Virus record (IMG/VR): IMGVR_UViG_3300050014_000310
Coordinates: 64,694-128,693 of that record
From: a virus
Length of the DNA stretch: 64,000 nucleotides
Strand: one strand, 5' to 3'
The translations under genes were made by a program, and so were the position numbers. This document shows, piece after piece, positions 1,102 through 44,379 of the stretch; the stretch's first letter is position 1; each line of letters opens with the position of its first letter. The notes below the pieces were generated by a model. It did no database searches and was not told the DNA's origin. It was given only the letters and a program-made list of their open reading frames with translations.

Positions 1102-2685
1102 TTAACCCATAATTCCCTGCTGAACTCGCATGATCAGACTCAAATTGTTTCCCTGAATAGCATCGGCAGTCTGCTGCGGGCTACCGGCTCCGCTGATGTA
1201 GTAAACCGGGCTTAAGGTTATCGTATTGGTCTTATTGCTTGCTCGAGGTGCTCCGAGATTCTTGAAAGCAGACAGCATATTCGTGAGCACAGAGTTGCTA
1301 AATATCTGGCTTCCACCAGGTAGGTTGAGAATCTCCGGTCCCTTTTCGCCTACCAGGGTGGGGCCGGATGCAAGGCCACCGGATGCTTTGCCGGGCGGAT
1401 CGGGAGGACCGAAAACAGGACTGCCGGGAGCACCCGGTTGATCCGGCGCAATCCACGTATCATAAAGTCCCTGCTCCCCCGTCTTGATATCGGCTTCTCC
1501 CTGAGCAATCATTTGAGGATTGTTCTCGTGCATCCCCAAAAGTTTTTCCGCTTCACCCGCGACAATTGAAATACCATCGGCAATAGAAGACACTCCCATT
1601 ACTACTGCGGTTATAACAGTCAGCACCGCTTTAAAGGCATCTGCTATCACAGTTCCCCAATTGACAAGCTTCCCCTGTCCACCGATCAGTTGCGCTATTG
1701 CGTTGATCATATCCAGCAAGGCTGTTCCTAATCCCTTAAAGGCATCCCATAAGGCTTTGATATCCGGGGTAATGGCCTTCCAAACTCCTGATAATGCACT
1801 CTGGCCACCTTTTGAGTAGGTTATATAGTCCTGCACCAACAGAATAATCGCAAGAATGGCCGCCGAAATCACCAATAGGGGGAGGTTCGCGTCCGCCAAT
1901 CCCGCCAAGATTCCCATGGTAATCTCGATTGCTTTGCCTATTGCCAGAATTGCAATTATTAACCCGGCCGAGATCTCGATGACGTGTTGCCACTTCGTTC
2001 CGAGGTTGTCCCACCAATTAACGAAATCTTTGCCCGCATCGTATACTTTTTCAAATAAAGTTACTATCCTGGCGATGAGGTCAGCGATCTTGGCTTCCCA
2101 TTTAGGGGCATTCTCGACAATCCAGTTGTTCATCTTCTGCAAGCCATCCTGGAAGTTTCCCAAGGGGCCGGATAAGTCTTTTGCTAAATCATAGCCGATA
2201 TTCATGATCCCCATTGTCATTTCAAGTTTTAGCTGGCGAAATTGAAGGGTGATCCCAAATAAATTATTCATCACAGATTGATAATCTGCCGGAGGCTCCA
2301 TTTCTTGAGCTACCTGGCGAAACTTAATAAAAGCGTCCATCAACTGCGGGCTTAAATACAAATCTTGAATAGAAACGCCTAACGCGTCTAAGCTAGACTT
2401 AAAAGCCACGGCAGAATTAAAATTGAGCCACATCTGCCTTGCGAACATTTCATTCTGAATTGTAGCGTTGGCGACCCCAAGGGTGAACTGATTGATAACA
2501 TCAGCCAGGGCGCCTATTCCTGCTATCGCTCCGCCGGCTATGGCAATACCTTGCAGCGAACTGGAAAAACTTGAGATCGATTTTGCTATCTGGCCAAGGG
2601 AGTCTTGGGCCTTACTAAAAGAGGCAGCGTCGGTAGAAAACCCCAGCGAAACGAGATACGAACGTATGATCCCTAATTCAGACAT
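1102..2685 (-). CDS. Tape measure protein (short, 527 aa)
   Basis: After tail chaperones; N-term IIRSYLVSLGF, helical/hydrophobic middle, C-term ASGG..GPTLVGEKGPE motif. Confidence 0.8.
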   Translation of the reverse strand: MSELGIIRSYLVSLGFSTDAASFSKAQDSLGQIAKSISSFSSSLQGIAIAGGAIAGIGALADVINQFTLGVANATIQNEMFARQMWLNFNSAVAFKSSLDALGVSIQDLYLSPQLMDAFIKFRQVAQEMEPPADYQSVMNNLFGITLQFRQLKLEMTMGIMNIGYDLAKDLSGPLGNFQDGLQKMNNWIVENAPKWEAKIADLIARIVTLFEKVYDAGKDFVNWWDNLGTKWQHVIEISAGLIIAILAIGKAIEITMGILAGLADANLPLLVISAAILAIILLVQDYITYSKGGQSALSGVWKAITPDIKALWDAFKGLGTALLDMINAIAQLIGGQGKLVNWGTVIADAFKAVLTVITAVVMGVSSIADGISIVAGEAEKLLGMHENNPQMIAQGEADIKTGEQGLYDTWIAPDQPGAPGSPVFGPPDPPGKASGGLASGPTLVGEKGPEILNLPGGSQIFSNSVLTNMLSAFKNLGAPRASNKTNTITLSPVYYISGAGSPQQTADAIQGNNLSLIMRVQQGIMG

Positions 2686-2908: not shown

Positions 2909-3391
2909 CTACGTTTGGACACTCGGCGACTTCGTAAGTAACCCCTCGGGGAGTAAAGCTGAGAGGGCGCCTGGCGAAAAACCCGACAGGTTGAAAACGA
3001 GCGCCTGCACCATTAGCGCCAGGCAGGTCATGGCATCATCGTCCAGGCCAATGACGCCAAGATGCCCCTCGGGATTTAACACCTGTATTTCGCCGCCAGA
3101 CAGGATCTCGAAGCAAACCCTCAGAGATTTGTTCTGGATGTCAACGAAATCAGCCTCTGACAACTTCGACAAAGCCCCTAAAACTGGTGATATGATTTGG
3201 CTGATCTCAATCCCCTGGTTCGTTGCAAGCATGTCAAACACTGGGGCCAGGATCCCTGCCACCTTGATCGCGATGAAACCGCCTGTCTGGGCAGGAAACT
3301 TTCTGAGACGGAACTGCCTGCCGCCTAGTCCAATATCTTTGAATTTTGGTCGTATATCTTCCATCGTTTTAAGCCTCCGCTTTGAATACAA
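2909..3391 (-). CDS. Tail assembly chaperone (gpG-like)
   Basis: Between tube and tape measure; contains the G GGT TTT slippery heptamer. Confidence 0.7.
   Translation of the reverse strand: MYSKRRLKTMEDIRPKFKDIGLGGRQFRLRKFPAQTGGFIAIKVAGILAPVFDMLATNQGIEISQIISPVLGALSKLSEADFVDIQNKSLRVCFEILSGGEIQVLNPEGHLGVIGLDDDAMTCLALMVQALVFNLSGFSPGALSALLPEGLLTKSPSVQT
2978..2984 (-). other. Programmed -1 frameshift site G-GGT-TTT
   Basis: X XXY YYZ heptamer in the correct phase; -1 frame reads FFARRPLSFTPRGVTYEVAECPNVAAW into MFAPV without a stop. Confidence 0.75.
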
Positions 3392-3399
3392 TTTAATTG

Positions 3400-4044
3400 T
3401 TATGCTTGTTTCCCATGACCTTCTTGAATTGGCTGTGCAATTGCTTTTTCAAATGGCCAGCCATTGCTAACGCGATAATACAATTGCGTAAAAGTTAAGC
3501 CATACTGTATTGCCCATTCTATCAAACATTTTGTTTGCCCATTATGTGTAATAAGGTGATTAGCGCTCGTATTTCTGGCTTGTTCTTGCATCGTTGCCCA
3601 TCGACAATTTTCTGGAGAATAACCTTTATCGTTATTTTTTCTATCAATAGTTAAGTCATCTCTATAGCCATGAGAAAGTGCCCAAGAAACAAACGCTTCT
3701 GCATCGTGAAACCATTCTTGACAAATTGTTATTCCTCGACCACCATAACGATCATAGCTTTTATGCTTTGTATTGCAGCATCTTCCTTTTAAATCTGCCC
3801 AAATTCTATAAACACGTAAATAAGATAATCTATGTTTTATGCATTTAACTTGGTCAACTTCTTTTTTGTAACAACCACAACTCTTAGACTTTCCTCTTCT
3901 AAGATCAACGGAAACAACAACAGTTGCATTTCCACAATCACAGTTGCATAGCCATTTAAAGTTATTGTTAATATCCTTACCTTCTGGCCTTATTGCAGTT
4001 AATCTGCCAAACCTTTGCCCTGTAATGTCAATAAATTTCCCCAT
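3400..4044 (-). CDS. HNH homing endonuclease with N-terminal Cys-rich domain
   Basis: DITGQRFGRLT..WLCNCDCG..SCGC; YGGRGITIC; TIDRKNNDKGYSPENCRWAT; AT-rich relative to neighbours. Confidence 0.85.
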   Translation of the reverse strand: MGKFIDITGQRFGRLTAIRPEGKDINNNFKWLCNCDCGNATVVVSVDLRRGKSKSCGCYKKEVDQVKCIKHRLSYLRVYRIWADLKGRCCNTKHKSYDRYGGRGITICQEWFHDAEAFVSWALSHGYRDDLTIDRKNNDKGYSPENCRWATMQEQARNTSANHLITHNGQTKCLIEWAIQYGLTFTQLYYRVSNGWPFEKAIAQPIQEGHGKQA

Positions 4045-4146
4045 AGAAAGACACCTCCGTAGTGTTTAATGCTGTTCCGATTAAATAAAATTTGCGGGAA
4101 ACAGATTCGGAATGTCTGCTTTCGGGTGGCCGCCCTATCCCGCAAA
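4045..4146 (-). ncRNA. Putative structured leader RNA, copy 1 (three-way junction + pseudoknot + RBS hairpin)
   Basis: P1 TTTGCGGGA/TCCCGCAAA, P2 GGG..CCC, P3 AGCAGA/TCTGTT, loop TTCCGA complementary to downstream TCGGAA; covaries with copy at 20228-20322. Confidence 0.65.
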
Positions 4147-4151
4147 AATGG

Positions 4152-4571
4152 TTATGATTGGAACATATTTTCCGCGAGTACCGTCCAAGTTACAAGTTGT
4201 CCCTGGGCCTGGTACGGCAAATCCGCCCTCTTCTGAAAGGCGCACCCCGTGCATTGGTTATTGTCACCCATGACCGCGCTGTCCGCCGTAATGGTCAACT
4301 GGTTCCATTCCGCAGGGTTACCTTTGAGGTAGTTGTATAGGCCCTGCAACCATTTATGAAACGCCGATGTCTGCTGAATCGCTATGGCAATCGAACCGTT
4401 CTCGCCTTCAACATCACTTGTCATAACACGGCCATCCGCCGCCACGTCCTGTACTGTACGATCCGTCGCCATACTGAAGGTGATCGTTCCAAGGCCGGAA
4501 CCGGTAGCAATGTACTGCCCATAAGCTGGATGCGAAAACACGGTCTGGAGATCCTTGAAGCTATAGATCAT
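4152..4571 (-). CDS. Tail tube protein (DUF3277-like)
   Basis: YSFKD start, VAADG, GSIAIAIQQTS; directly after sheath. Confidence 0.75.
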   Translation of the reverse strand: MIYSFKDLQTVFSHPAYGQYIATGSGLGTITFSMATDRTVQDVAADGRVMTSDVEGENGSIAIAIQQTSAFHKWLQGLYNYLKGNPAEWNQLTITADSAVMGDNNQCTGCAFQKRADLPYQAQGQLVTWTVLAENMFQS

Positions 4572-4671
4572 TGGTTATATACTCCTTTCCCAGAATTGAA
4601 AAAGCCCTGACCGAAACTGCCAGAGCCACAACCCTAATTTGTTCCCAATAGGGGATGCCGCTAATTTGTTC

Positions 4672-6189
4672 CTACATCGGCACCTGGACCGCGATCACGA
4701 TCCCCTGAATGGCCCCGGCCAGACAAGGTATCACGTAGATCGGCGGAGATATCCGGGCGCCCTTATTCGCGGAGCTCTGTGAAGCAATCGTCGCCGACAG
4801 TACCAGATATCCCTCGCTCAGCGTATCGCCGGTGTTCAGCGTCGTAGCTCCAATGGTCAAAGGCGGCCCATCCCAGGTGCCTGGAGCCAGGAACCCAGTC
4901 GTGACAGCGCTCTCCAGCGGGACCTTGATCCCGTTCCTCAATAGCGTCATGCCGCCTTCAGTGTAGGGAATCTTCTGGCTACCAGTTTTCAAATTCATCA
5001 CGGCAGTGGCAATCTGGCTCACCAGTTGATCCAGCCCCAAAACTTCGTCAAACCACATGCCGTTGGCCATCGTGCCGTTTTCAAAAACGGTATAGGTGTT
5101 GTTGTAGGTAGCCACGAAGTTGACGTTATCGCCGCCAACGCCATCTACACCAACGAAAATGGCCGCCTGAGCCTCAGTCAACGGCTCCGGGGTCACCCCG
5201 GTTATCACCTTGTCAGCCAGGGCAAAGGAGCTATTGGCTGTGCCCGTGTTGGACCCCATAGCGTAGCCCATAGCCCCGACTACGGCGTTTGGCGTCTGGG
5301 TGCTGTACTGCGTCAAGGTACGCATATAATTGGCATCCATTAAGGCCAGGGCAACAGAACCTACGCCATCGGTGTTAGTCGCTCCATTGGCCGCCCCCAG
5401 TTTCAGCGCAGCCGCCAGGTCATTAGTCGCGCCGTTGACAATCCTGATTCTTGACAATGGTCCGGATGTTGCCGAGGTGACGAGGTAGACCCCACCGGTG
5501 AATGCCACAGTCACGGCAGCATAGGCGCCACCCAGCGCTTGAATAGCAGCCTGCAGCGCAGAGGCAACCAATGCCCCAGTGTTGAGCCCGGTAACGCTCG
5601 TCAGGGTAACAGCGTGGTAGGTCGGAGTCAGGCCGTAGACATCGGCGTCAACAGCAATCTGCAGCGTAGTCTGGCTGCCAGCAGAGATGTTCGTACTTGG
5701 TGATGCCGCGCCGATCTGATACCCGGCTGCCAGGGCTGTGCTGGCGAGTACCGCGGCATCGGCGGTCGTGACAAAATGCTGCGCCGCCGGCTGGCAACTG
5801 TTCACGTAGGCGGAGATCATCAAGATATCCTGAGCGGATGCGCCGCACACGGACACCAGATACCAGTTGGGGTTTAGCGATCGGCAGGCCTGGACCGCGG
5901 CCAGCGCAGTTTCCGTTGAGCTGTTCCACCGGCCAATGACTACCTGAGTGGGCTGCGGAGTCTGCCCGAAGTAGATCTCAGCCGCTAGGTATTCCGGGCT
6001 GGTCAAAGAGAACCCATCGGCGGTCATGCCGTTGGTGCTCGAATAGGCGCGGGTGCGATCAAGCGACGTTCCGGCAATAATTGAAGATGTGCCGACGATC
6101 AAGCCCTGGTTGAAGCTTGGCCCGACTGCCGAGGACGGAGAGATGACTACTGAAATCTGGATGATGTCGTTCAGGTTTAATGTACTCAC
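4672..6189 (-). CDS. Contractile tail sheath protein (DUF3383-like)
   Basis: LNDIIQISVVISP, SPEYLAAEIYFGQTPQP, GTMANGMWFDEVLGLD, KIPYTEGG, AGAIQ. Confidence 0.85.
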   Translation of the reverse strand: MSTLNLNDIIQISVVISPSSAVGPSFNQGLIVGTSSIIAGTSLDRTRAYSSTNGMTADGFSLTSPEYLAAEIYFGQTPQPTQVVIGRWNSSTETALAAVQACRSLNPNWYLVSVCGASAQDILMISAYVNSCQPAAQHFVTTADAAVLASTALAAGYQIGAASPSTNISAGSQTTLQIAVDADVYGLTPTYHAVTLTSVTGLNTGALVASALQAAIQALGGAYAAVTVAFTGGVYLVTSATSGPLSRIRIVNGATNDLAAALKLGAANGATNTDGVGSVALALMDANYMRTLTQYSTQTPNAVVGAMGYAMGSNTGTANSSFALADKVITGVTPEPLTEAQAAIFVGVDGVGGDNVNFVATYNNTYTVFENGTMANGMWFDEVLGLDQLVSQIATAVMNLKTGSQKIPYTEGGMTLLRNGIKVPLESAVTTGFLAPGTWDGPPLTIGATTLNTGDTLSEGYLVLSATIASQSSANKGARISPPIYVIPCLAGAIQGIVIAVQVPM

Positions 6190-6302
6190 GTTAAATATTC
6201 ACCTCGCTTTCTGGAAATTCAGGGCAACAAAAAAGCCGCCTGATGACGGCCATTCTTTGGCGATTCGAGTTAATCCAGACTACTTGACTATTCGGGAATG
6301 TG

Positions 6303-7130
6303 TTACGTGTCAATCGTATCAAACACTCCCCGGTCGGTTTCCACGATGATCTGGGTCGATGCCAGCCAGGGGATCTGGGTATACAGTTTGACTTCCTCGT
6401 TGAATCGCAATCGCAGATGACCGACCGGCCACCACTGCCCCTCGAAATTCTCCGGCTCCCAGACAGTGCTGTAGGGATCCAGGATCAGGGCAACATTGGC
6501 TTCAGCCAAAGTCGTAGAGGTATCGTCAAGGAAACCGTTGTGCAGTTTTTCGGCGTTCTCTTCGGAGTGGGGGCCGTAGACATCGAAGTCCACCGCATGA
6601 ACCCTGACATAGGTGGTAGTAACCTGCTGATTGACTCCATCGCCTACGTCGTCGCCATATTCGGTATCGCGTTGCTGAGTGATCTGATCTGGATCGAAGT
6701 ATGCCTTCAGGAATACCTGATCATTGCCGATTGACCAGGCGGGAGCGCCGTCCTGCGGCCAACTGATTCTCACCCCGGAATTGGGATCTAACCCGGTGAA
6801 GGATGCAGCCATCTTCTGAATGAGATCCCCGAATTGTAGCCGGGTGAGGATCTGATTTGCCGGACCCGTTTCCACGTAGGAAAACTGATCAGATGCGCTG
6901 GTAGCGCTGGCGCCTGATGGAGTCACAACTGTGACGTCTATGGTTCCGATGTCAGATGGAGGAGCGATTACTTCAAGATACCGGTCAGATGCCAGAATAG
7001 GATTTGTTCCTGGGGTTGAGCCAAAGTAGACAGTGGTCATGCCGGTGAATCCGCTGCCCATCACGCCTACCGTAGTACCCCCGGATAGGGGCCCGTATGA
7101 AGTTGTCAGCCTGGCCACTGTGAGGGCCAT
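6303..7130 (-). CDS. Neck/tail-terminator protein with N-terminal IPT/TIG (Ig-like) domain
   Basis: GPLSGGTTVGVMGSGF..VYFG..IDVTVVTPSG..DQFSY (IPT); C-term PENFEGQWW..LRFNE; immediately before sheath. Confidence 0.7.
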   Translation of the reverse strand: MALTVARLTTSYGPLSGGTTVGVMGSGFTGMTTVYFGSTPGTNPILASDRYLEVIAPPSDIGTIDVTVVTPSGASATSASDQFSYVETGPANQILTRLQFGDLIQKMAASFTGLDPNSGVRISWPQDGAPAWSIGNDQVFLKAYFDPDQITQQRDTEYGDDVGDGVNQQVTTTYVRVHAVDFDVYGPHSEENAEKLHNGFLDDTSTTLAEANVALILDPYSTVWEPENFEGQWWPVGHLRLRFNEEVKLYTQIPWLASTQIIVETDRGVFDTIDT

Positions 7131-7204
7131 TTGAGATCACCTACTATCGGAAAAACGAGACTTCTGCGCTGTCGGGAAGCAAGGCCTCTTGTCGAAATCG
7201 CGAC

Positions 7205-7591
7205 TTAATCACCCTGCATATATACAGCGAAGGCGATAAACCACTGATCACCACTAGAAGAGATCCAAGGATTCACCTGAGACACCCTGTACCGGTCACC
7301 GCGATAGCAGATCTCATCTGACGTTCCGGTATTGCCGGATCCATCGTTTTTGTGAGTGACGAAAATCTGCTGCCCGGGGGAATAAAACTTGGTCATGCTG
7401 GTTACACGGTCAGCATCGGGTGTCTGCTGGATTTCCTTGCCTGAAGCCGGCATCACCGGACCACCAAAGGAAAGAGGCTGTTCAGTCTCGATCAGACGGC
7501 CCGCGGAGTATGTGCCTGTTTTGCGGTAAACCGTGTAGGGTTGCCAAAACTCGGAGTCGTTGAGAATTTCAGAGAGATCCGTGGGGATCAC
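7205..7591 (-). CDS. Head closure / head-tail joining protein
   Basis: Synteny; DEICYRGDRYRVSQVNPW. Confidence 0.6.
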   Translation of the reverse strand: MIPTDLSEILNDSEFWQPYTVYRKTGTYSAGRLIETEQPLSFGGPVMPASGKEIQQTPDADRVTSMTKFYSPGQQIFVTHKNDGSGNTGTSDEICYRGDRYRVSQVNPWISSSGDQWFIAFAVYMQGD

Positions 7592-8298
7592 TTCCCTACT
7601 TTATAGGTGAAATCCTTAGTTGCATTGGATTTGCCCATCTGCTTGCCCATGGTGAGATTCTGGGATGATCCCTTCTTGCGAACGACAAATACTATGGCTC
7701 TCCGGAGCTGGCCAGTATCCACCAAGGGGCGCGAGCTTCCTTTAGCCCTGATCGTACTTTCTGCATTCTTCGGCCAATGATTTTTTGGATTCACGAACCA
7801 ATTTCTGCAAAGATTCTGCGCGTCCATGCCAGCCCGCTTCAGCGCATTCTCAGCCCCAGACAGATTCCCATCCAGGGCCAGCCCCGCGGCCTTGGCCAGA
7901 TCCTCAGATAACATCTTCGCGTTCTGCGGGTCCCGGATCGCCGGTTCGATGATCGGTCTGGGCGGGATGCGCCAGTCGGCCTTGCCATGCGCTTTGGTAT
8001 AAAGTGATAGGGCTTGCGAATATGGCATCCCCTTGTCCAGGTTGTCCATCAGGCGGTCATAGTCCAGTGTGTGCGGCAATCCATTGGGGCCGATCATGGC
8101 CTGGGCCATTTCCTGTTGCATATTTTTGGAGCGTACCCCGTGAGTGTGGATGTAGCAGAGTTGGGCATTGGTGATCTTGCCGGACCTGCCGGCATATTGC
8201 TCCGGGATGCCGACCAGGACTTCGGCTCTGGTTAGATCGGCAAGGGACTGGAACATCTGCTGAGATTGATCCTTGACGGTGACTTTAGCCTTCAGCAT
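7588..8298 (-). CDS. Neck/tail-completion protein
   Basis: VLVGIPE, IPPRPIIEPAI, NAESTIRAKGSSRPLVDTGQLRRAI. Confidence 0.7.
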   Translation of the reverse strand: MLKAKVTVKDQSQQMFQSLADLTRAEVLVGIPEQYAGRSGKITNAQLCYIHTHGVRSKNMQQEMAQAMIGPNGLPHTLDYDRLMDNLDKGMPYSQALSLYTKAHGKADWRIPPRPIIEPAIRDPQNAKMLSEDLAKAAGLALDGNLSGAENALKRAGMDAQNLCRNWFVNPKNHWPKNAESTIRAKGSSRPLVDTGQLRRAIVFVVRKKGSSQNLTMGKQMGKSNATKDFTYKVGK

Positions 8299-8467
8299 GG
8301 CCGCCAGACACTTTTAAATGCATGGTTTCTACGAGCACCTTCTGGGCTTCTATCAGGGTTAGAATCTCACTGACGCTCGTCGTGTTATCAATTACTGATT
8401 CAACCCGAGCAGCCAGTTTAATGAATTGTCCATTTAGTTTTTCGCCAGCATTAATCAACTCTGCCAC
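8285..8467 (-). CDS. Small hypothetical protein
   Basis: 60-aa ORF with AGGGGTGA RBS filling the gap between neck genes. Confidence 0.45.
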   Translation of the reverse strand: MAELINAGEKLNGQFIKLAARVESVIDNTTSVSEILTLIEAQKVLVETMHLKVSGGHAEG

Positions 8468-8484
8468 CGTTTTTCACCCCTTTT

Positions 8485-9219
8485 CTAGCGAACATACATT
8501 CCACCCATACCCGCGAGTTTCCCAATCGATGCGAACATTTGCCCAGCTAAAGTCAAATGGTACGCGCCCCACCCATCGATCCCTTTAGCCACAGTCGAGA
8601 AGTCCACGCTAACTGAAACATCTCCGGCCGACTTCCCCGTTTTCAGTCCCCGGGCTTCCCCGGCCACCATGACCTGCTGCGCCGATGCCCCGGCCGGCGT
8701 CATGCTCATCATGTAAATCGTGACGAAATGGGCGACGAAGAAGCCGATAGCAGCCTGCCAGAAGCTTTTATACCGGATCTGAAGGATCACGGCGTTGCCC
8801 AGGCTTAGGTACGTCTGCAGAATAAACAGCGGCACCATGAGCGGATAGCATGTCAGATTCACAGATCCTGACGCAGTGGTCGGAGCCGACAGCGTAACCG
8901 TAGTGGCGCCTACGGTGGTCACTGTAGCGCCATCAGGGATATAGCCAATACCGACGGCCAGCATCCCCGGGGTGATCCCTGTGGTGCTGGACAGGGTTAA
9001 TACGTTGCTGCCGATCGCGGCCGTCCCGGCTGCAGATATTGCGGATCCCCCGAACTGAGGGCAAGCGGCCAGGAAATCAGACAGCAGATAGGGCGAATTC
9101 GTGCCTTGCAGAATGCCGGACGCAACAGCCGTAACCTGTTCGACCATTGCTTCCACGTTCTGCCCATAGGGAGAGATGGCTCCTCCGATGCCTATCGGAT
9201 CGTCAAACATGGGAATCAC
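8485..9219 (-). CDS. Head-tail adaptor (DUF4054-like) with inserted beta-rich domain
   Basis: DFLAACPQF, FVAHFVT, KSAGDVSVSVD, YHLTLAGQMF; Thr/Gly-rich insertion. Confidence 0.7.
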   Translation of the reverse strand: MIPMFDDPIGIGGAISPYGQNVEAMVEQVTAVASGILQGTNSPYLLSDFLAACPQFGGSAISAAGTAAIGSNVLTLSSTTGITPGMLAVGIGYIPDGATVTTVGATTVTLSAPTTASGSVNLTCYPLMVPLFILQTYLSLGNAVILQIRYKSFWQAAIGFFVAHFVTIYMMSMTPAGASAQQVMVAGEARGLKTGKSAGDVSVSVDFSTVAKGIDGWGAYHLTLAGQMFASIGKLAGMGGMYVR

Positions 9220-9284
9220 CTCCGCAGGGGGAATGCTGATTTAAGGCGGCCGGTCATATTACTACAGCAATACCGTCGCATGCC

Positions 9285-9725
9285 TTATGTAGGCTTCTTG
9301 ACGCCCCTGACTTCCTCTTTCCGGGCCTCGAGTTCGGCATCAATTGACTCGATCTTCTCGACATCCTTGGCATCGATCTTCTCTGCTAGAGTTTCGGCCA
9401 TGACCGGAGCGGAAACGGTTGCAGTCGAGGCCGGAGCAGTTGCAGCCGGAGCGACCAGGGACTCCTTTTTTTCTTCCAGCGCCTTGATCTCCTCTTTCAA
9501 AGCTGCCAGTCTCTGCTGTGCCTTCAGGACGTTTTCGTCGTCGGCAGAAGCGGTGAAGGACGTGATCGAGCCATCACTGATTGCCAGCTTGTAATAATCA
9601 TCTTGTTCTACCCAGTCGGGCAGCGTGCAGAAACCAACTTTTGTTTTCACCTTGATCAGCCGGCCTTTGGCGTCTTTCTCGCCCTGGGTAAAGGCAAGGA
9701 CCTTATTTGCCATTAGTTTGAGCAT
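9285..9725 (-). CDS. Hypothetical head-module protein
   Basis: Follows capsid; LPDWVEQDDYYKLAISDGSI then coiled coil. Confidence 0.55.
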   Translation of the reverse strand: MLKLMANKVLAFTQGEKDAKGRLIKVKTKVGFCTLPDWVEQDDYYKLAISDGSITSFTASADDENVLKAQQRLAALKEEIKALEEKKESLVAPAATAPASTATVSAPVMAETLAEKIDAKDVEKIESIDAELEARKEEVRGVKKPT

Positions 9726-9834
9726 AAAAACAGGTCTCCTCTCATTTTGAAACGTAGAAAAAATCAGATATTTTGAAAATGGAAAAGAGCCTCTTTGCGG
9801 GAGGCTCCCTGGCTACAGACGCTTTGAGTTTATT

Positions 9835-18457: not shown

Positions 18458-18605
18458 CTCTCCTGTGCTTGTATTTGGCGTTCCAGCCCTTTTAACAAAC
18501 TGTACCTAATGTTGAGGATATCATTTAAGGATAATGACAACCGACAACACCTCGATTAAGCTACTTGATGCGCGGATAATTTCAGGAAACCAGCCAGCAT
18601 ACAAA

Positions 18606-19466
18606 TTACGCTGCAAGTCTTAAAAATTCGCTCTTTGCCATCATCATTACTCGATTGTTGTGCCAAACCCTATGCGGGAACACAATCCGGTTAATGTCAA
18701 TAATTGGCTCGGCATAGCACCTACAATTCCATATGTTTCCAGCATGGTACGGCGCAGGAATCGTCTTGGGTGGCTTCCCCATCAGGGTTTCAGGCCGGGG
18801 TGGTTCATTCCAGAAAACGATCACATCATCCATCTTCTTGTGGCCTTCTCTGACCCTCTCGTCTTCACTTGTCCGCCAGATATAGGCACTGATGCCCATA
18901 TCCTCGGCCCGAGCCTGCGTCAGGCTTGCTCCGGTTTTGCTGCACTCTGTCCGAGCGATCAACCGCGCCTTCGCCCTACTATTAGCCGGAAACATCTTCA
19001 CGATATCCCCTGCGATGTCCTCAGCCCTTCTGCCTGCAATCGTTTCTTTCCCAACATACTCGGTCACATGGCCCGCGATATCCAGGGGCAACGTTTTTAT
19101 CAGTTCAGCATTACGCAAAATCTGGAAATTAAACACGCCACCAACTGATCCGTTCAACTCATGCCGTAAGGCCTCGTAGATTAAACGTCCCTTCGATGAT
19201 TCCCTCGCGGCTTCCCGCCAACTGTGAGCGCCATCGTGCAGGAGCATCGTCACCATGTTTTTTGCTACCTGGTCGGCGAAATCGTTGACTCGGTAAAGTG
19301 AGGTGAAGGATCTCAGGTTTCGTACCATCTGGAGCGGATCTTTTTCGTCTTTGATGATGCCGTATAGGGCATTGACGAGTTTTTGAAGCTGGGCGAGAAA
19401 GTTCTTTTCGATTCTGGGTTTTGAACTCCAAAAGTCGTATTTGCGGAGTGCGGCATCCATTGGCAT
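18606..19466 (-). CDS. Minor head morphogenesis protein (Mu gpF / SPP1 gp7 family)
   Basis: ARLIARTE, YIWRTSEDERVREGH, HAGNIWNCRCYAEP. Confidence 0.9.
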   Translation of the reverse strand: MPMDAALRKYDFWSSKPRIEKNFLAQLQKLVNALYGIIKDEKDPLQMVRNLRSFTSLYRVNDFADQVAKNMVTMLLHDGAHSWREAARESSKGRLIYEALRHELNGSVGGVFNFQILRNAELIKTLPLDIAGHVTEYVGKETIAGRRAEDIAGDIVKMFPANSRAKARLIARTECSKTGASLTQARAEDMGISAYIWRTSEDERVREGHKKMDDVIVFWNEPPRPETLMGKPPKTIPAPYHAGNIWNCRCYAEPIIDINRIVFPHRVWHNNRVMMMAKSEFLRLAA

Positions 19467-19549
19467 AGGGGATCACCTTGATTCTTGTCTTTATTCACTT
19501 CAAATAAAAAAGCACCCCGAAGGATGCCCTATTTTACTTATTATTTTAA

Positions 19550-20227
19550 TTATATATCATTAAGTTTTGCGAATTCACCAAAGAGTTCTGTCGCTGCCTT
19601 GTTGTATGCAAGAGCGGCTTCTTCTTCTGTCTCATAATAGCCTAAACTTCGATTCCTACCATCATGCTTTATATATGCGTTGTATCGCTTCTTTCCTCTT
19701 TTATAGCAATAAACACCCTTATATTTACTAATGGTATTTTTGCGTTTATTAGTATTATGAAGATTTTCAGCATTTGTGCAAATTCTTAAGTTTTCTCTTC
19801 TATTATCACAAGTATCATGGTTAATGTGATCAACGTACTGACCTTCTTGTGCATCGGTAATTATCCTGTGCATTAATTTGATCTTTCTATTAAAACGCGT
19901 AGATGGATAACCTTGAGAACCAATACACCATGTATAATTCTTTATGAATTCAAAATCAATTTTATCAAAATAAAACTTTTTACCTTTTTGCGTGATGCCT
20001 ACCATACACCCATCTTGTTCATAAAAAATGTTTTTTGATAAATTGCATCCTTCGGTACCACACGTTGTGGTCGATCCACTCATCAAATTAAATGATAGGG
20101 GATGCGTTTCCATCCCACAATCACAAATACATTTCCATCTAAACCTACCTCTGGATCGCTTTTCACTAGGTTCAACAACAGTCAATTTCCCAAATCTTTG
20201 CCCAGTTAAATCGACAAACTTACCCAT
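19550..20227 (-). CDS. HNH endonuclease with C-terminal AP2 domain
   Basis: DLTGQRFGKLT; VDHINHDTCDNRRENLR; SKYKGV..LGYYETEEEAALAYNKAA. Confidence 0.9.
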   Translation of the reverse strand: MGKFVDLTGQRFGKLTVVEPSEKRSRGRFRWKCICDCGMETHPLSFNLMSGSTTTCGTEGCNLSKNIFYEQDGCMVGITQKGKKFYFDKIDFEFIKNYTWCIGSQGYPSTRFNRKIKLMHRIITDAQEGQYVDHINHDTCDNRRENLRICTNAENLHNTNKRKNTISKYKGVYCYKRGKKRYNAYIKHDGRNRSLGYYETEEEAALAYNKAATELFGEFAKLNDI

Positions 20228-20322
20228 AACAATAGCACCTCCTGTAGTGTTTTCCTGATTTTTATTTGTGGGAAAGGCGGTCAGGAAACCGCCCTTGTCA
20301 GGTGTACAGCCCTATCCCACAA
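20228..20322 (-). ncRNA. Putative structured leader RNA, copy 2
   Basis: P1 TTGTGGGA/TCCCACAA, P3 GGGCGG/CCGCCT, loop TTTCCTGA complementary to downstream TCAGGAAA; extended -10 TGGTATAAT just upstream. Confidence 0.65.
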
Positions 20323-20337
20323 TGTAATTATACCATA

Positions 20338-22038
20338 TTACCCCTGCTTCATCATCAAAGTTAATTCGGCAAAATGTTGCTTTTCTTCGTTGAGAATTTC
20401 TTGCAATTTTGCCTTATCCTTTTCTTCTATACTAGGAGACTGAAGAATTTGATCATAAAGATTGATAGCTTCAATTTCACCGTCTAAAGCCATTTGCAAT
20501 AGTGCCATTCTGGTCATCCCCTTAAAAACATCGTTGGAATCGGCCGCGCTGCCTTTTTTTTCGCCTAACATCTCTTTGCTTGATTGCTTCTCTTTTTCGT
20601 CCCCCAGCAGCCCCAGATCCGGCGTATCTTCCCCTGCGCCCCCAAAATCATCACTGGCCCGGGCAATATCCTTATCGCTTATACTTGTAAAGATATTTGT
20701 CGAGTAACTTAATTCATGAAGTTCAGTCAAATAATGCTTCTGGCTTATCGCCCCGTCGTTCCAGGCCTTCGAGATCGACTCCACCTTTTTCGCAACCGTG
20801 TCCGATGCCTTATCCTCGGTAGGTGTCGAAACCGGATTAAACTTGATCCCCAGATCCTTCGGTATCTTCCCAAATTCGCTCATAAACAGCACCGGGTACA
20901 GTTTGTTCAGCTTCGGTCGCAGATCCTTATTCTGCTGCTGCCCGATCATGTCTGTGTACATTTGGATGTCGGACTCACCGGTGGCGTTCATGCCGGCCGG
21001 ACTTCTCCCAAACAGCCGCGTCATTGGTATGTCGCAGGCCCCGGAAATATCCATCATCTGAGACTCGCTTATTTCTTCCAGCCCGGCAAAGGTGTAATTG
21101 ATCGCCGAAATCGTCTCACCTTCGCCGACGATCATCATGCCATTATTCGACCTCATCTGGTTCTGAGCCGATTTAATATTATAAAAGTTTCTCTGCATCT
21201 CCGGATCAGAGGCTGCCTGCAACTGGTTGAATCCTTCAACCTGGTCAACCAGTAGATTGGCCTGGAACACTAGGGACGCGATATTCCAGGATGTGGAGTC
21301 TCTTTTCAGTAACTCCTCATAAACGTGCTCCATCACCGACGATCCCCAGTAGATCTCGGCCATCTCTTCCCAGAAGGGCAGTTTCTTGCCGGTAAACCGT
21401 AGGACCCTACTATGATGCACCTTGGAAATAATCGCCTCGGATACGGTGTCCCTGACCTCGTAGAACTCAGGCATCCCGAATTCAGGGTCCCGAATATCCT
21501 TGATCAGTTCCAGCCCCGGGTAAATGCCGGACCAGCGATCCACCACCATTAAGCCACAGAACGAGCCAGGCAGGATATCATCGTAATCTAACGGCTCATC
21601 GAGTTTATCCTCGTGGCCGTCGATCATCATAATAGCGCCGGCGCCGCCATACAAACGGCCCCAGTAGAGTCCCTCGAGCAGCTTCTCTTTGACTAACGTG
21701 CGTTGCTCAAGCTTATTGATCCTGTCCGTCTCTTTGGGTTGGAGATCAGTGGTCAATGCCCAGCCGTTTTTCATCATGTCTTCGGGGACGGTGTTGACGA
21801 TCTTATTGCAGATCCAGGAATTGCGATATAGAGAATTGAGGAGCTGGTAGTTGCGAGATAAGCGGGTTAACGGATAGGTGGCGGCAGAGATAATATTCTC
21901 TGACGCGCTGCCGAGACGAGCCAGGGAATTTTGGAAGGTGTCCATGACGGTGGAGCGAACCGGGCGGACGTTTCGCTGGGTAGTTAAATTTCCGGGACGC
22001 GAGTTGGGGCGATTGACGATACCTTTTTTGGTTGCCAT
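20338..22038 (-). CDS. Portal protein (DUF1073 family) with C-terminal ferritin-like extension
   Basis: LYRNSWICNKIVNTVPEDM, WGRLYGGA, HHSRVLRF, IPMTRLFGRSPAGMNATGESD; probable start MATKK. Confidence 0.88.
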   Translation of the reverse strand: MATKKGIVNRPNSRPGNLTTQRNVRPVRSTVMDTFQNSLARLGSASENIISAATYPLTRLSRNYQLLNSLYRNSWICNKIVNTVPEDMMKNGWALTTDLQPKETDRINKLEQRTLVKEKLLEGLYWGRLYGGAGAIMMIDGHEDKLDEPLDYDDILPGSFCGLMVVDRWSGIYPGLELIKDIRDPEFGMPEFYEVRDTVSEAIISKVHHSRVLRFTGKKLPFWEEMAEIYWGSSVMEHVYEELLKRDSTSWNIASLVFQANLLVDQVEGFNQLQAASDPEMQRNFYNIKSAQNQMRSNNGMMIVGEGETISAINYTFAGLEEISESQMMDISGACDIPMTRLFGRSPAGMNATGESDIQMYTDMIGQQQNKDLRPKLNKLYPVLFMSEFGKIPKDLGIKFNPVSTPTEDKASDTVAKKVESISKAWNDGAISQKHYLTELHELSYSTNIFTSISDKDIARASDDFGGAGEDTPDLGLLGDEKEKQSSKEMLGEKKGSAADSNDVFKGMTRMALLQMALDGEIEAINLYDQILQSPSIEEKDKAKLQEILNEEKQHFAELTLMMKQG

Positions 22039-22079
22039 GTTGGTTGATCGCCCCCTTTGGTGGAAATACGAATATAAAA

Positions 22080-23399
22080 TCAAGCTGCTCGTTTGACGAT
22101 AGTTTTGACGAAGTAACGAATATCATCGAGGCAATGGTCAAATGCCTTCACAACTTCTTCCGATCCTCGCTCAGAAGCCTTCTCGTTCCACACATAAGCT
22201 GCAAACTCTTTCTTCAGGTTAGGGCATTTATCGACGTTAATTAATAGCCGACCTTGCCGCAATAATGATGATACTAACCTGATTCCTTCTATTACTTCAT
22301 GTTTTGCGTTGATCACATCGTCTGTTCCCCTAGCCCTCAGTAACTTCTTCCTTAATGCCACCTTGAACGATGCCGCCGAAGGGTCAACGATGAGAGAAGA
22401 ATATCGCTTTAATGCTCCGTTTTCGTCTTGGATGAATTTATAAACATCCTCGACATATTCAGAGTCATCTTTCTGCTGATTATGCTGCTTTGAATCGTAG
22501 TAATATTCATCTTCAACGTAGTAATATTTGATATTGGTCAATAAATCAGTCTGCTCAATGATTTCATGCATAGCAAAGGGATTTGTAGTCCCATAATCCA
22601 CACTGTACCAACGCAGGTAATATAAATCATAATCAGGGCCACCTTGGCCGGTGTGATACTGATTCTTGGGAGCAAACATATCGTAGACAATACCTTCTGC
22701 GGCACTACGCTTCCCCAGGATATCCCGAAGATACCAGACTGAGTTTTTTGCGTAAGTTATTAACGTTGTTCGTATCTTTTCAGCAGTGAATGACAGATTA
22801 TCGAATATCGTAAAATGTTCATAGTTCAGTCCATAGTTTGGATATTGATCGTTGTTTTTCTGATGCATATCCAAAATTTCAGGGTAGAACCAATGCTGCG
22901 GAGGCTTCGGGTTGAGATCAAAAAAAAGTTTCCGATCCGAAGACGAGAGTGTCCGGTCGAAAATTTCTTTAACAAAAGGCTTGGCGCAATCATTGACTTC
23001 TGTTGCGTAAACGGTCCCATAAGTGTTGCCATGAATCGATTTTTCGTCGCCGTCCTTGCCTCCGCCGGAGATAAGGATTATCTTCTCTCCGGTCTTTGTG
23101 GAGACATAGAGGCAATCCCGGTTTTGATACTTACCTGGATGCGAACGCCCCTCAAACCAATTGGCAACGCCAAAGCCATTGCAGTCAATTATGTTAAGTT
23201 TTGCTGATGCCACAGAGAAGCCAGATGCCAGGTGGAGTTTGTCAGGATGTGTCTCCAGACATTCGCACCATGCTATGATGTTCAGGACATTTTTTCCCGC
23301 TCTTTTTCCACCTTCTGCTATATTTAACCAACTTTTGTATGATCTCTTCAGGTAATTAACTTGTTTCTGGCAGAACGCAGCATATTCTGGCATGATCAA
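22080..23399 (-). CDS. terL: Terminase large subunit
   Basis: AEGGKRAGKN Walker A, DLNP, VDYGTTNP, VDPSAASF, DHCLDDIRY. Confidence 0.92.
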   Translation of the reverse strand: MIMPEYAAFCQKQVNYLKRSYKSWLNIAEGGKRAGKNVLNIIAWCECLETHPDKLHLASGFSVASAKLNIIDCNGFGVANWFEGRSHPGKYQNRDCLYVSTKTGEKIILISGGGKDGDEKSIHGNTYGTVYATEVNDCAKPFVKEIFDRTLSSSDRKLFFDLNPKPPQHWFYPEILDMHQKNNDQYPNYGLNYEHFTIFDNLSFTAEKIRTTLITYAKNSVWYLRDILGKRSAAEGIVYDMFAPKNQYHTGQGGPDYDLYYLRWYSVDYGTTNPFAMHEIIEQTDLLTNIKYYYVEDEYYYDSKQHNQQKDDSEYVEDVYKFIQDENGALKRYSSLIVDPSAASFKVALRKKLLRARGTDDVINAKHEVIEGIRLVSSLLRQGRLLINVDKCPNLKKEFAAYVWNEKASERGSEEVVKAFDHCLDDIRYFVKTIVKRAA

Positions 23400-39793: not shown

Positions 39794-40492
39794 TCATACG
39801 AACATCCTTTGCTGTGCCGTTTCTTGGGCTATACGCTTTTGCGCTAGGGCCGCGTATTCGGGAGATATTTCTATGCCGATGTAATTCCTGCCTGTGCTTG
39901 CAGCCGCTATTGCCGTTGACCCACTTCCAAGGAATGGATCGCAAATCGTTTGACCTTTTACGCTAACATCACGGATCAACTTTTCCATAAGAGGAACGGG
40001 CTTTTCGTTTGGGTGCTGGAGTTTTTCTGCATCTACCCTTGGCGAACGAACGATTGATTGTGGTCTATGATTCGGAAACTTGAACAGTCCTTTTGTGGCG
40101 AACCATACAACGTCATGCTGTAGAGCGTATGCGCCCTCTAAATCCCCTAAGCCGTGTACTGCCCTATCCCATATCACCTGAGACTTGATCGTGAATCCTG
40201 CCCATTCTATTGCTTGCTTGAAGGCATCCTGTACATCCCACCGGCAGAAACAAAGCAATGATCCGGTTAGTTTTGTAATGCGATAAGCATCATAGAGCCA
40301 CCAGATAAACGGGAGTTTGTCGTTGGCGATCTTAGGCTTCAATTGCGTTTTATCAATCCGCCAGGCGGATTGATAATCTATTCCATATGGAGGATCGGTC
40401 ACAAAAGAATCGATACTGTTGTCTGGCATCTCCCGCATGACTTCCAGGCAATCTCCGCATATTACTTTGTTCAGCCAGCGATCCATGTTCAT
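39794..40492 (-). CDS. DNA N6-A/N4-C methyltransferase (beta class), orphan
   Basis: GDCLEVM, TDPPY, HPNEKP, DPFLGSGST, GIEIS. Confidence 0.9.
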   Translation of the reverse strand: MNMDRWLNKVICGDCLEVMREMPDNSIDSFVTDPPYGIDYQSAWRIDKTQLKPKIANDKLPFIWWLYDAYRITKLTGSLLCFCRWDVQDAFKQAIEWAGFTIKSQVIWDRAVHGLGDLEGAYALQHDVVWFATKGLFKFPNHRPQSIVRSPRVDAEKLQHPNEKPVPLMEKLIRDVSVKGQTICDPFLGSGSTAIAAASTGRNYIGIEISPEYAALAQKRIAQETAQQRMFV

Positions 40493-43800: not shown

Positions 43801-44379
43801 CTACTCCACCCCCGCCATGAGTCTCATATCTCTGCTCACCGTGTTTACGCCTATACATAGCGTTTTTGCTATTGCCTCATATGTCAGTCCCCAATTACGC
43901 AAGTTCAAGATCGCTGGCATCCGTTTTTCCCTCCTTAGTTGACCATGCAGGCGTGTGTGCTCACCTTGCGTTGTTATAAGTAAGTTTTCAGGACGGTTGT
44001 CGTAGGTATCTCCGTTGATGTGATGCACTACTTCCGTTGGTAAGAGTTTACGGCCAAGCATCTTTTCAGCAACAATTCGATGTTGGAATATGCGCCTTCT
44101 TCCTATGGCATAGTAACCTTTGAATTTGAAATATCCTCGCTTAAACCCAGGTGGATTTTTTAACATTCGCTGTAGCAGTTTTTCCCTTGCATTGGGTAGG
44201 GCAGCAGCTTCTTTCGGAGATCTTCTGGGAATATCAAGTTGTCGCAGACCCCGGAAAATGGTATCTTTGCTGCACCCACATAAGGCAGCAATTTCAGCGG
44301 CGGTCATTTTTTCCTCGAGGTACTTGTGCTGAAGCCAGTTAGGATCAAGGTTAATTTTATTGCTGCCACCGCTTCCCAT
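43801..44379 (-). CDS. HNH endonuclease
   Basis: QHRIVAE..LGR..VVHHINGDTYDNRPENL..H; HTH-like ends. Confidence 0.85.
   Translation of the reverse strand: MGSGGSNKINLDPNWLQHKYLEEKMTAAEIAALCGCSKDTIFRGLRQLDIPRRSPKEAAALPNAREKLLQRMLKNPPGFKRGYFKFKGYYAIGRRRIFQHRIVAEKMLGRKLLPTEVVHHINGDTYDNRPENLLITTQGEHTRLHGQLRREKRMPAILNLRNWGLTYEAIAKTLCIGVNTVSRDMRLMAGVE

Follow-up and report, generated by a model that had tools for sequence, protein, structure and literature searches.

The preQ1-II and SAM-II riboswitches are translational platforms in which a pseudoknot holds the Shine-Dalgarno (SD) sequence, and the C4 antisense RNA of phages P1 and P7 (RF01695) is a compact RNA encoded on the same strand as its own target and ahead of it, with loops complementary to downstream sites, among them the ribosome-binding site (RBS). 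In T-even phages, RNA structures that sequester the RBS regulate I-TevI, I-TevII, I-TevIII, segB and mobE (reviewed in PMC2988022). A further RNA family, int-alpA (Rfam RF02996; gathering score 35.8 bits), is typed "Gene; sRNA" (small RNA) and is catalogued without a known function. Here we describe two structured RNA leaders, each preceding a different HNH endonuclease gene, in a window of 64,000 nucleotides (nt) that forms the second half of the 128,693-base IMG/VR virus record IMGVR_UViG_3300050014_000310. The leader loci and their genes are all on the minus strand, and coordinates are those of the window.

Judged by sequence and predicted fold, both leaders, together with a third copy elsewhere in the same phage, are divergent members of the int-alpA RNA family. 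Each presents one hairpin loop that can pair with either of two downstream sites, the second of which overlaps the SD region, and the leader probably limits in this way how much nuclease is made.

Results

A tube-like structural gene and nuclease gene 1 flank copy 1 of the leader (4146-4045), and copy 2 (20322-20228) is set between the portal gene and nuclease gene 2. The core of each is a three-way junction, which was recognized in the sequence and is the minimum-energy fold given by RNAfold in both cases. For copy 1 (core 4091..4146) the fold has an energy of -19.8 kcal/mol (z -1.84; 8 of 200 shuffles as good), and the core scores 87.1 bits with R1 and 43.4 bits (E 3.8e-9) with R2, the covariance model described below. 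The corresponding values for copy 2 (core 20266..20322) are -26.9 kcal/mol (z -4.04; 0 of 200 shuffles as good) and 36.1 bits (E 3e-7) with R2. Copies 1 and 2 are the only ones that R2 finds in the window; a third exact GGGATAGGGC at 40161-40170 is inside a coding region, has no helices around it and was judged a chance match.

In copy 1 the closing helix P1 pairs UUUGCGGGA (4146-4138) with UCCCGCAAA (4099-4091). It is followed by the linker J1/2 (UA, 4137-4136), by P2 (4135-4124), in which GGG (4135-4133) pairs with CCC (4126-4124) around the inner sequence CGGCCA (4132-4127), and by P3 (4120-4100), in which AGCAGA (4120-4115) pairs with UCUGUU (4105-4100) to close the loop CAUUCCGAA (4114-4106). 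Copy 2 has the same order of parts: P1 pairs UUGUGGGA (20322-20315) with UCCCACAA (20273-20266), J1/2 is again UA (20314-20313), P2 (20312-20300) pairs GGG with CCU around CUGUACA (20309-20303), and P3 (20295-20274) pairs AGGGCGG (20295-20289) with CCGCCUU (20280-20274) beneath the loop UUUCCUGA (20288-20281). Downstream of the core, the segment that we call site 1 is in copy 1 UCGGAA (4080-4075), a 6-nt Watson-Crick complement of the P3 loop segment UUCCGA, and in copy 2 UCAGGAAA (20258-20251), an 8-nt complement of the loop. A preliminary description of this DNA had reported a layout common to both leaders, a compensatory change in P1, a P3 that differs in sequence and still pairs, and a P3 loop complementary to a downstream segment. 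All four are borne out, with P1 reading GCGGGA/UCCCGC in copy 1 and GUGGGA/UCCCAC in copy 2 (G-C to G-U/A-U).

The remainder of each leader is a short box, the SD sequence and a spacer. In copy 1 this part spans 4045..4065, with an ACACUAC box, ACACUACGGAGGUGU at 4065-4051 and the ATG at 4044; in copy 2 it spans 20228..20249, with a CACUAC box, CACUACAGGAGGUG at 20249-20236 and the ATG at 20227. The same description saw here a hairpin enclosing the RBS. The shared ACACUAC(A)GGAGGUG box is present, but the hairpin is weak: the SD sequence GGAGG of copy 1 (4058-4054) sits between ACACU and GGUGU (-3.6 kcal/mol, z -0.65), and AGGAGG of copy 2 (20243-20238) between CACU and GGUG (-2.6 kcal/mol). 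As a general fourth helix of the family this hairpin is not claimed, a stem of at least 4 pairs being found in 13 of 31 members with a mean z of -0.37. Similarly, the extended -10 described ahead of copy 2 is present as TGGTATAAT (20335-20327), directly after the portal stop codon (20340-20338) and 4 nt ahead of P1, but a promoter scan that requires a -35 box does not flag it. The box is conserved in copy 3 (TGCTATAAT) and in a relative of the portal locus, L165 (alignment A8).

Many members have a self-complementary sequence inside P2 (GGCC, UGUACA, CUGCAG, GCAUGC, GUAUAC, CGCG and others). A palindrome of at least 4 nt occurs there in 19 of 28 distinct sequences, compared with 9.4 expected from shuffles. 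Such a P2 could permit loop-loop dimerisation or could merely lengthen the helix.

Relatives of the leaders were collected because two copies alone cannot show structure beyond chance. Viral contigs were scanned with two patterns, which matched 37 and 117 stretches. Of 108 distinct sequences, a P3 hairpin together with five or more P1 pairs was present in 75. Chance matches to the patterns had no helix outside the letters that the pattern fixed. L022 and L024 from the first scan appear to be matches of this sort, and L092 passed the helix filter and was removed before the tests, its P3 hairpin not being of the family type. The first pattern was also matched by two initiator-type tRNA genes (L014 and L028), in which the acceptor end, U8-A9 and the D stem read GCGGGA-UA-GGGC. 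MAFFT alignments of all members misplaced P2, P3 and the 3' strand of P1; hence R2 was seeded from 14 members of equal length, and the remaining sequences were aligned to it. Covariance-model searches were run by cmsearch with filters off, and R2 recovered all 51 expected copies in 50 loci.

Paired cells make up 93.2% of the R2 alignment of 50 distinct sequences, where shuffles give 74.1%; for covariation the score is 0.474, compared with 0.141 in shuffles and at most 0.11 in slid controls; in neither measure did any of 500 shuffles reach the observed value. Changes on both sides of the helix are seen at six pairs of P1 and at four of P3, and each of these pairs occurs in four to six types. 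Since the family far exceeds shuffles in these measures, its structure goes beyond chance, and the earlier view of a real covarying structured RNA stands, with strong covariation in both P1 and P3. Compensation was found even at positions that had seemed invariant. L164, which was found without the pattern, has a GGGC/GCCC closing pair and GAG/CUC in P2, and copy 3 and L165 have GGGU where the letters of the pattern had been fixed. A blastn search with both leaders against cultured phages gave matches to the nuclease coding parts only.

The P3 loop matches two tandem sites, namely site 1 and the SD region about 15 nt beyond it. Among 31 non-redundant viral members, the longest complement of the loop averages 5.71 nt at site 1, compared with 3.62 nt for mismatched combinations, and 5.0 nt in the SD zone, compared with 3.75 nt. 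A second set, collected separately from bacterial genomes, comprised at least 120 loci, which yielded at least 29 structured members and at least 23 new representatives; in these the means are 4.87 against 3.22 nt at site 1 and 5.17 against 3.82 nt in the SD zone. None of 10,000 permutations reached the observed mean in any of the four comparisons, and the covarying pseudoknot proposed from the two window copies is upheld at site 1 in both sets. Individual members illustrate how far the sequences diverge while both matches persist: L008 has the loop UGCUCC, site 1 CGGAGCA and SD region GGAGCA; L053 has CCUUAUCAA, UUGAUA and UGAUAAGG; L127 has GUCCCA, UGGG and UGGGACA; and in copy 2 the loop segment UCCUG faces UCAGGAAA at site 1 and CAGGAGG in the SD region. 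In the window copies themselves the complement of the loop to the SD region is CGGA (4059-4056) to UCCG in copy 1 and CAGGA to UCCUG in copy 2, and these 4-nt and 5-nt matches are significant only family-wide.

The two pairings have similar duplex energies (-9.87 kcal/mol for site 1 and -9.30 kcal/mol for the SD zone), and for 17 of the 31 members the site 1 duplex has the lower energy. The duplexes occupy overlapping bases of the loop and exclude each other. Site 1 and the SD site often contain GGA, which is curious beside the gene upstream of the motif in L127 (L127:366-563, minus strand), which encodes a CsrA-like regulator of phage type (phrog_8397, E 5e-20); L127 is the single instance.

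The position of the element within its transcripts is also regular. P1 begins a median of 8 nt past the upstream stop codon (at most 15 nt in 25 of 28), and from P1 to the start codon the median distance is 34 nt (25-40 nt in 26 of 31).

The preliminary description could not assign the leaders to a named family. This no longer holds, since relatives of the window copies match int-alpA above its gathering score. Among 20 member loci, seven gave a match to the Rfam model at E<=1; five of these pass the gathering score (L139 62.4, L164 46.4, L118 43.5, L101 38.9 and L084 37.3 bits) and two fall just under it (L043 34.3 and L036 33.6 bits). The remaining 13, both window copies included, have no int-alpA match at E<=1. 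Searched with Rfam, the window gives nothing at gathering score and no int-alpA match at E<=10 around either copy, and the int-alpA model has 0 matches at E<=10 on the whole phage record, so that all three copies of the phage go unmatched.

The Rfam consensus of int-alpA consists of an 8-bp P1, J1/2 UA, a 4-bp P2, J2/3 GAAAA, a 5-bp P3 with a CCU-containing loop, and a short J3/1, and its tail ends in AGGG about 10 nt past P1, at the position of site 1. Every element of this junction plan (P1, UA, a G+C-rich P2, an A-rich J2/3 beginning GA, and P3) is found in both window copies, as is a CCU-type P3 loop complementary to the tail about 10 nt past P1 (UUCCGA/UCGGAA in copy 1 and UUUCCUGA/UCAGGAAA in copy 2). 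Furthermore, R2 bridges the two groups, with scores of 53.6 bits for L139, 52.7 for L118, 58.2 for L101, 26.7 for L084, 43.4 for copy 1 and 36.1 for copy 2. The 14 seeds of R2 exclude the window copies and the five loci that pass the gathering score, and include L043. It is because relatives match RF02996, and because R2 scores them and the window copies alike, that we place the leaders on a divergent branch of int-alpA. A match to a characterised Rfam family had been expected to remove the novelty of the leaders; much of it is indeed gone, but int-alpA is functionally uncharacterised and the window copies are themselves unmatched. The name int-alpA derives from the neighbourhood of integrase or alpA genes. 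The window copies follow tube-like and portal genes instead, and one member (L124) follows an integrase gene. The family is said to be a candidate motif of Weinberg et al. 2017, a survey whose main text does not name it (PMC5737381), and a literature search for int-alpA found no functional study.

The third copy of the leader in this phage, outside the window in the first half of the record (G000:C1:52187-52248, equivalent to L162:12387-12448; minus strand; R2 29.2 bits, E 2e-5), precedes a 263-amino-acid (aa) GIY-YIG homing endonuclease gene (L162:11560-12351). All three copies of the phage sit before homing endonuclease genes. Copies 2 and 3 have the -10 box, the junction, site 1 and the ACACUAC-SD box in common, and copies 2 and 3 and L165 share the entire leader though the open reading frames (ORFs) behind it differ (alignment A8). 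Relatives of the two loci were compared as well. Of 17 portal relatives, 14 are informative on what follows the portal gene, and L165 alone among these carries the motif and an HNH gene, both together. The other 13 have no nuclease and no motif match at E<=1; a Mu-F-like gene comes directly next in nine of them and other small ORFs in four. A search with the tube protein gave a single relative, L164 (85% identical), which at the same place as copy 1 has a strongly diverged motif and a GIY-YIG gene. Because the motif occurs at the portal locus only with a nuclease, and because copy 3 shares the leader, we conclude that the leader and its own -10 box belong to the endonuclease cassette in this lineage of phage. 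The mobile unit of RNA and HNH gene that had been proposed is retained insofar as the leader travels with homing endonucleases; that it is specific to HNH genes is not.

The wider family reaches further still. Downstream genes of the members, typed by PHROG, fall into 39 clusters. Nine are of nuclease type: HNH-type in L027, L059, L089 and both window genes, and GIY-YIG in L047, L053, L083 and L107. A further seven encode tail assembly chaperones. Major head protein, small terminase, virion protein and glycosyltransferase-like protein each contribute a single cluster; four match families of unknown function (L127 also has a weak endonuclease VII match); and 15 match nothing. The picture of one leader for HNH genes has to be given up, as GIY-YIG, tail chaperone, major head and small terminase genes, and many genes without an assignment, also follow the motif. 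Upstream, the genes with a match mostly encode tail, sheath, portal or virion proteins; a DNA polymerase, an integrase, regulators and a CsrA-like gene are found among them too. Among the matches listed, the bacterial hosts, according to the record names, are Planctomycetota, Alpha- and Gammaproteobacteria, Desulfobacterota-type metagenome-assembled genomes, Halanaerobiales and Acidobacteria, and about 20 junction nucleotides are near-invariant across hosts of many phyla. Outside this phage lineage, for example at the tube/chaperone junction of a G+C-rich group, the motif serves resident genes.

Two member loci have further features of note. In L107 two copies of the motif (394-457 and 1379-1442, minus strand) lie on either side of one GIY-YIG gene, the order being sheath gene, motif, nuclease gene, motif and tube-like gene; these copies have P1 in common and differ in P2 and P3. 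The motif of L008 is preceded, at a distance of about 200 nt, by a group I intron (L008:668-853, minus strand; RF00028, 78.7 bits), which is cut at the end of the locus and apparently sits within the tail tube gene.

Regarding the genes of the window, nuclease gene 1 (3400..4044; 214 aa) matches 0 Pfam families and matches phrog_374 (E 3.7e-68); the PHROG families matched are annotated "HNH endonuclease", and the protein has an N-terminal DxTGQRFGxLT Cys domain. Nuclease gene 2 (19550..20227; 225 aa) matches HNH_3 (E 5.7e-8), weakly AP2, and phrog_99 (E 1.1e-42), and carries the same N-terminal domain. As had been described, this domain is all that the two proteins share (tblastn: residues 1-57 only, 49% identity). 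A third paralog with the Cys domain (DxTGQ..G), of 216 aa, is encoded within 9835-10545 (minus strand) and is 36.6% identical to gene 1 over 205 aa. Its leader (10486-10545) is of another type, a simple hairpin CCUCUCUUUU/AAAAGAGAGG with the RBS in the 3' arm and a -10-like TGTAAAAT in the loop. In the GIY-YIG nuclease of L164 (L164:729-1634) the Cys domain (phrog_374) is C-terminal, at residues 219-290, as opposed to its N-terminal place in the window nucleases; the domain looks like a shuffled DNA-binding module. A further HNH-type gene of 192 aa (43801-44379, minus strand) has no int-alpA-type leader in front of it.

The remaining neighbours, likewise on the minus strand, are structural. 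The tube-like gene upstream of copy 1 (4152..4571) matches KPP10_Orf10 and phrog_280, a virion structural protein family, and its stop codon is 5 nt ahead of P1 of copy 1. A tail assembly chaperone gene (2909-3391) lies downstream of nuclease gene 1. The portal gene upstream of copy 2 (20338..22083) matches Phage_portal_3 (E 2.3e-107), and nuclease gene 2 is followed by a Mu-F-like head gene.

Discussion

On balance we favor the view that the leaders act in cis as governors of the translation of the following gene, because the element sits about 8 nt after a stop codon and about 34 nt before a start codon. Among the functions that had been listed for the RNA beforehand, a translational switch provides the best fit; repression by pairing, and any trigger for it, is what we infer from the complementarity, given the fold, covariation, sites, spacing and gene contexts observed. 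The three-way junction would fold on its own within a few nucleotides of the upstream stop codon and would present the P3 loop as an anti-SD sequence. The loop could then pair either with a decoy, site 1, located about 4-12 nt past P1, or with the SD region about 15 nt further on. The two pairings would be exclusive and nearly equal in stability, and their balance may set how frequently ribosomes load. The expected outcome is a low, buffered output for genes placed behind highly expressed structural genes, such as those for homing endonucleases and tail chaperones. The balance might respond to a terminating upstream ribosome, to a ligand, to a protein or to nothing.

Several observations weigh against this interpretation. 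The patterns used for the harvest fixed the junction letters GGGAUAGGGC, CCYGA and UUCCC, and alignment A7 was fitted to the R2 model; both favor the finding of structure. The SD complement of copy 1 is only 4 nt (CGGA), and the mismatched background is high, as any anti-SD-like loop fits any SD sequence. In four of the 31 members (L012, L068, L107b and L136) the distance to the start codon is 70-89 nt, and the loop has 2-4 nt of complement in the SD zone. Nor does the small SD hairpin exceed shuffles, and Rfam types int-alpA as an sRNA gene. Finally, the conserved junction exceeds what a plain anti-SD hairpin needs, which leaves some further component, for instance a tertiary structure or a factor that binds, unaccounted for.

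This last point bears on a switch that answers to a signal, in which a ligand, an ion or a host or phage protein, bound as in a riboswitch or by protein recognition, would decide between pairing with the decoy (ON) and with the SD sequence (OFF). The near-invariant junction nucleotides, the two mutually exclusive and nearly isoenergetic pairings, and a pseudoknot within a conserved fold whose Rfam model extends to site 1 would all suit such a device. Nevertheless we consider it unlikely, as the downstream genes (nucleases, tail chaperones, capsid genes and genes of unknown function) have no common metabolic logic, and L164 and the Rfam consensus show compensated variation in the junction letters, which the pattern had in part fixed. 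An element for RNA processing or stability, cut by RNase P, E or III or blocking an exonuclease, would make the SD complementarity secondary; it would separate a strongly expressed upstream cistron from the one downstream or protect the 5' end of the nuclease mRNA. The element does follow directly after the stop codons of abundant structural genes, the -10 box of copies 2 and 3 would start a transcript at P1 and so give it a 5'-terminal helix, and the 5' half, GCGGGA-UA-GGGC, resembles the acceptor stem, U8-A9 and D stem of a tRNA. The likeness ends there: ARAGORN finds 0 tRNA genes in the window, the leaders have no T arm and no RCCA tail, and we rejected a tRNA or tRNA-like gene. Processing would also leave the covariation of the loop with two downstream sites at fixed spacing unexplained, and we regard it as quite unlikely. 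A hammerhead-like reading was discarded as well, CUGANGA and GAAA being absent by eye.

An sRNA acting in trans, released from the transcript and pairing elsewhere as well as downstream in the manner of C4, would agree with the Rfam type, with a compact RNA closed by P1 and preceded by a promoter-like box in copies 2 and 3, and with the arrangement of C4, whose own target is likewise located further down the transcript that carries C4. It is nonetheless improbable: there is no terminator-like site or U-tract after P1, each loop is a better fit to the sites downstream of it than to sites from other copies, and the distance to the start codon is fixed. The C4-like element suggested earlier also finds no counterpart, since no C4 match was obtained in the window at gathering score, around both copies at E<=10 or in the 20 member loci at E<=1. 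The presence of three kinds of nuclease genes directly behind the motif, the GIY-YIG gene of L107 flanked by two copies and the excess of P2 palindromes could instead point to a DNA site for homing or recombination, beside which endonuclease genes insert and in which the RNA fold is incidental. That the compensatory changes preserve RNA helices and not the DNA sequence, that loop/site complementarity is a property of RNA from the same strand, and that portal relatives without a nuclease also lack the motif, which was therefore not a pre-existing target there, make this highly improbable. An intrinsic terminator of the upstream structural gene has next to no probability: a G+C-rich helix does lie directly after the stop codon, followed in copy 1 by AAAUUUUAUUU, but 0 terminator-like sites were found at either window copy, G+C-rich members have no U-tract, and a branched junction with a covarying pseudoknot is not a terminator feature. 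Processing, trans-acting sRNA, DNA site and terminator are all disfavored because none explains a covarying pair of sites at fixed spacing.

Cis-acting control of the following gene still leaves room for a true switch, because the junction is conserved beyond need and the stop codon is so near that a terminating ribosome would open the outer P1. We tentatively put forward, as a rather doubtful extension, that int-alpA is not an sRNA gene but a portable, self-folding, two-state translational switch, used by mobile-gene cassettes and structural genes alike, whose junction senses a signal. The signal might be the ribosome that terminates 5-10 nt upstream and opens P1, or else a ligand or protein, and would shift the anti-SD loop between the decoy and the RBS, tying nuclease synthesis to the translation of late genes. 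Homing endonucleases and morons would carry the switch with them, phages would also place it between structural genes, and the self-complementary P2 loops could add a layer of RNA-RNA dimerisation.

If translational control by these leaders is correct, it would explain how selfish nuclease genes can reside inside the most highly expressed phage operons without harm to the phage, and it would represent a compact and modular throttle on translation, functional in many bacterial phyla. An orphan catalogued RNA family would gain a testable function and a much wider membership, and the element could be used as an annotation marker for mobile cassettes in phage genomes.

The window leaders can be compared with each of the described systems. 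As in preQ1-II and SAM-II, a loop-to-3'-tail pseudoknot lies beside the SD sequence within a conserved fold; by comparison with those riboswitches, the gene context of the leaders implies no ligand and no Rfam riboswitch model matches. The leaders are like C4 of P1 and P7 in compactness, in their upstream position on the same strand and in loop complementarity that includes the RBS, but they have one pairing loop and not two, and they reside in structural operons and nuclease cassettes and not in an immunity operon. The three-way junction architecture is the same as in int-alpA, whose consensus has a C-G closing pair and P2 GccC/GggC where the window type has an A-U closing pair and P2 GGGC/RCCY. 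Its model, at 71 positions, stops short of the SD-overlapping second site and takes in neither the constant spacing to the start codon nor the contexts of nucleases and tail chaperones. The leader of the third paralog in the window shows the arrangement described for I-TevI of T4. In the T-even endonuclease genes, leader RNA in a polycistronic phage transcript pairs with the RBS and limits translation, with a promoter nearby (PMC2988022), a parallel to what is proposed for the window leaders. Those hairpins are described there as simple and local, with relief by a late promoter inside the hairpin (PMC2988022), whereas the window leaders, unrelated to them in sequence, join a three-way junction to an anti-SD loop and a decoy and have the promoter-like box upstream.

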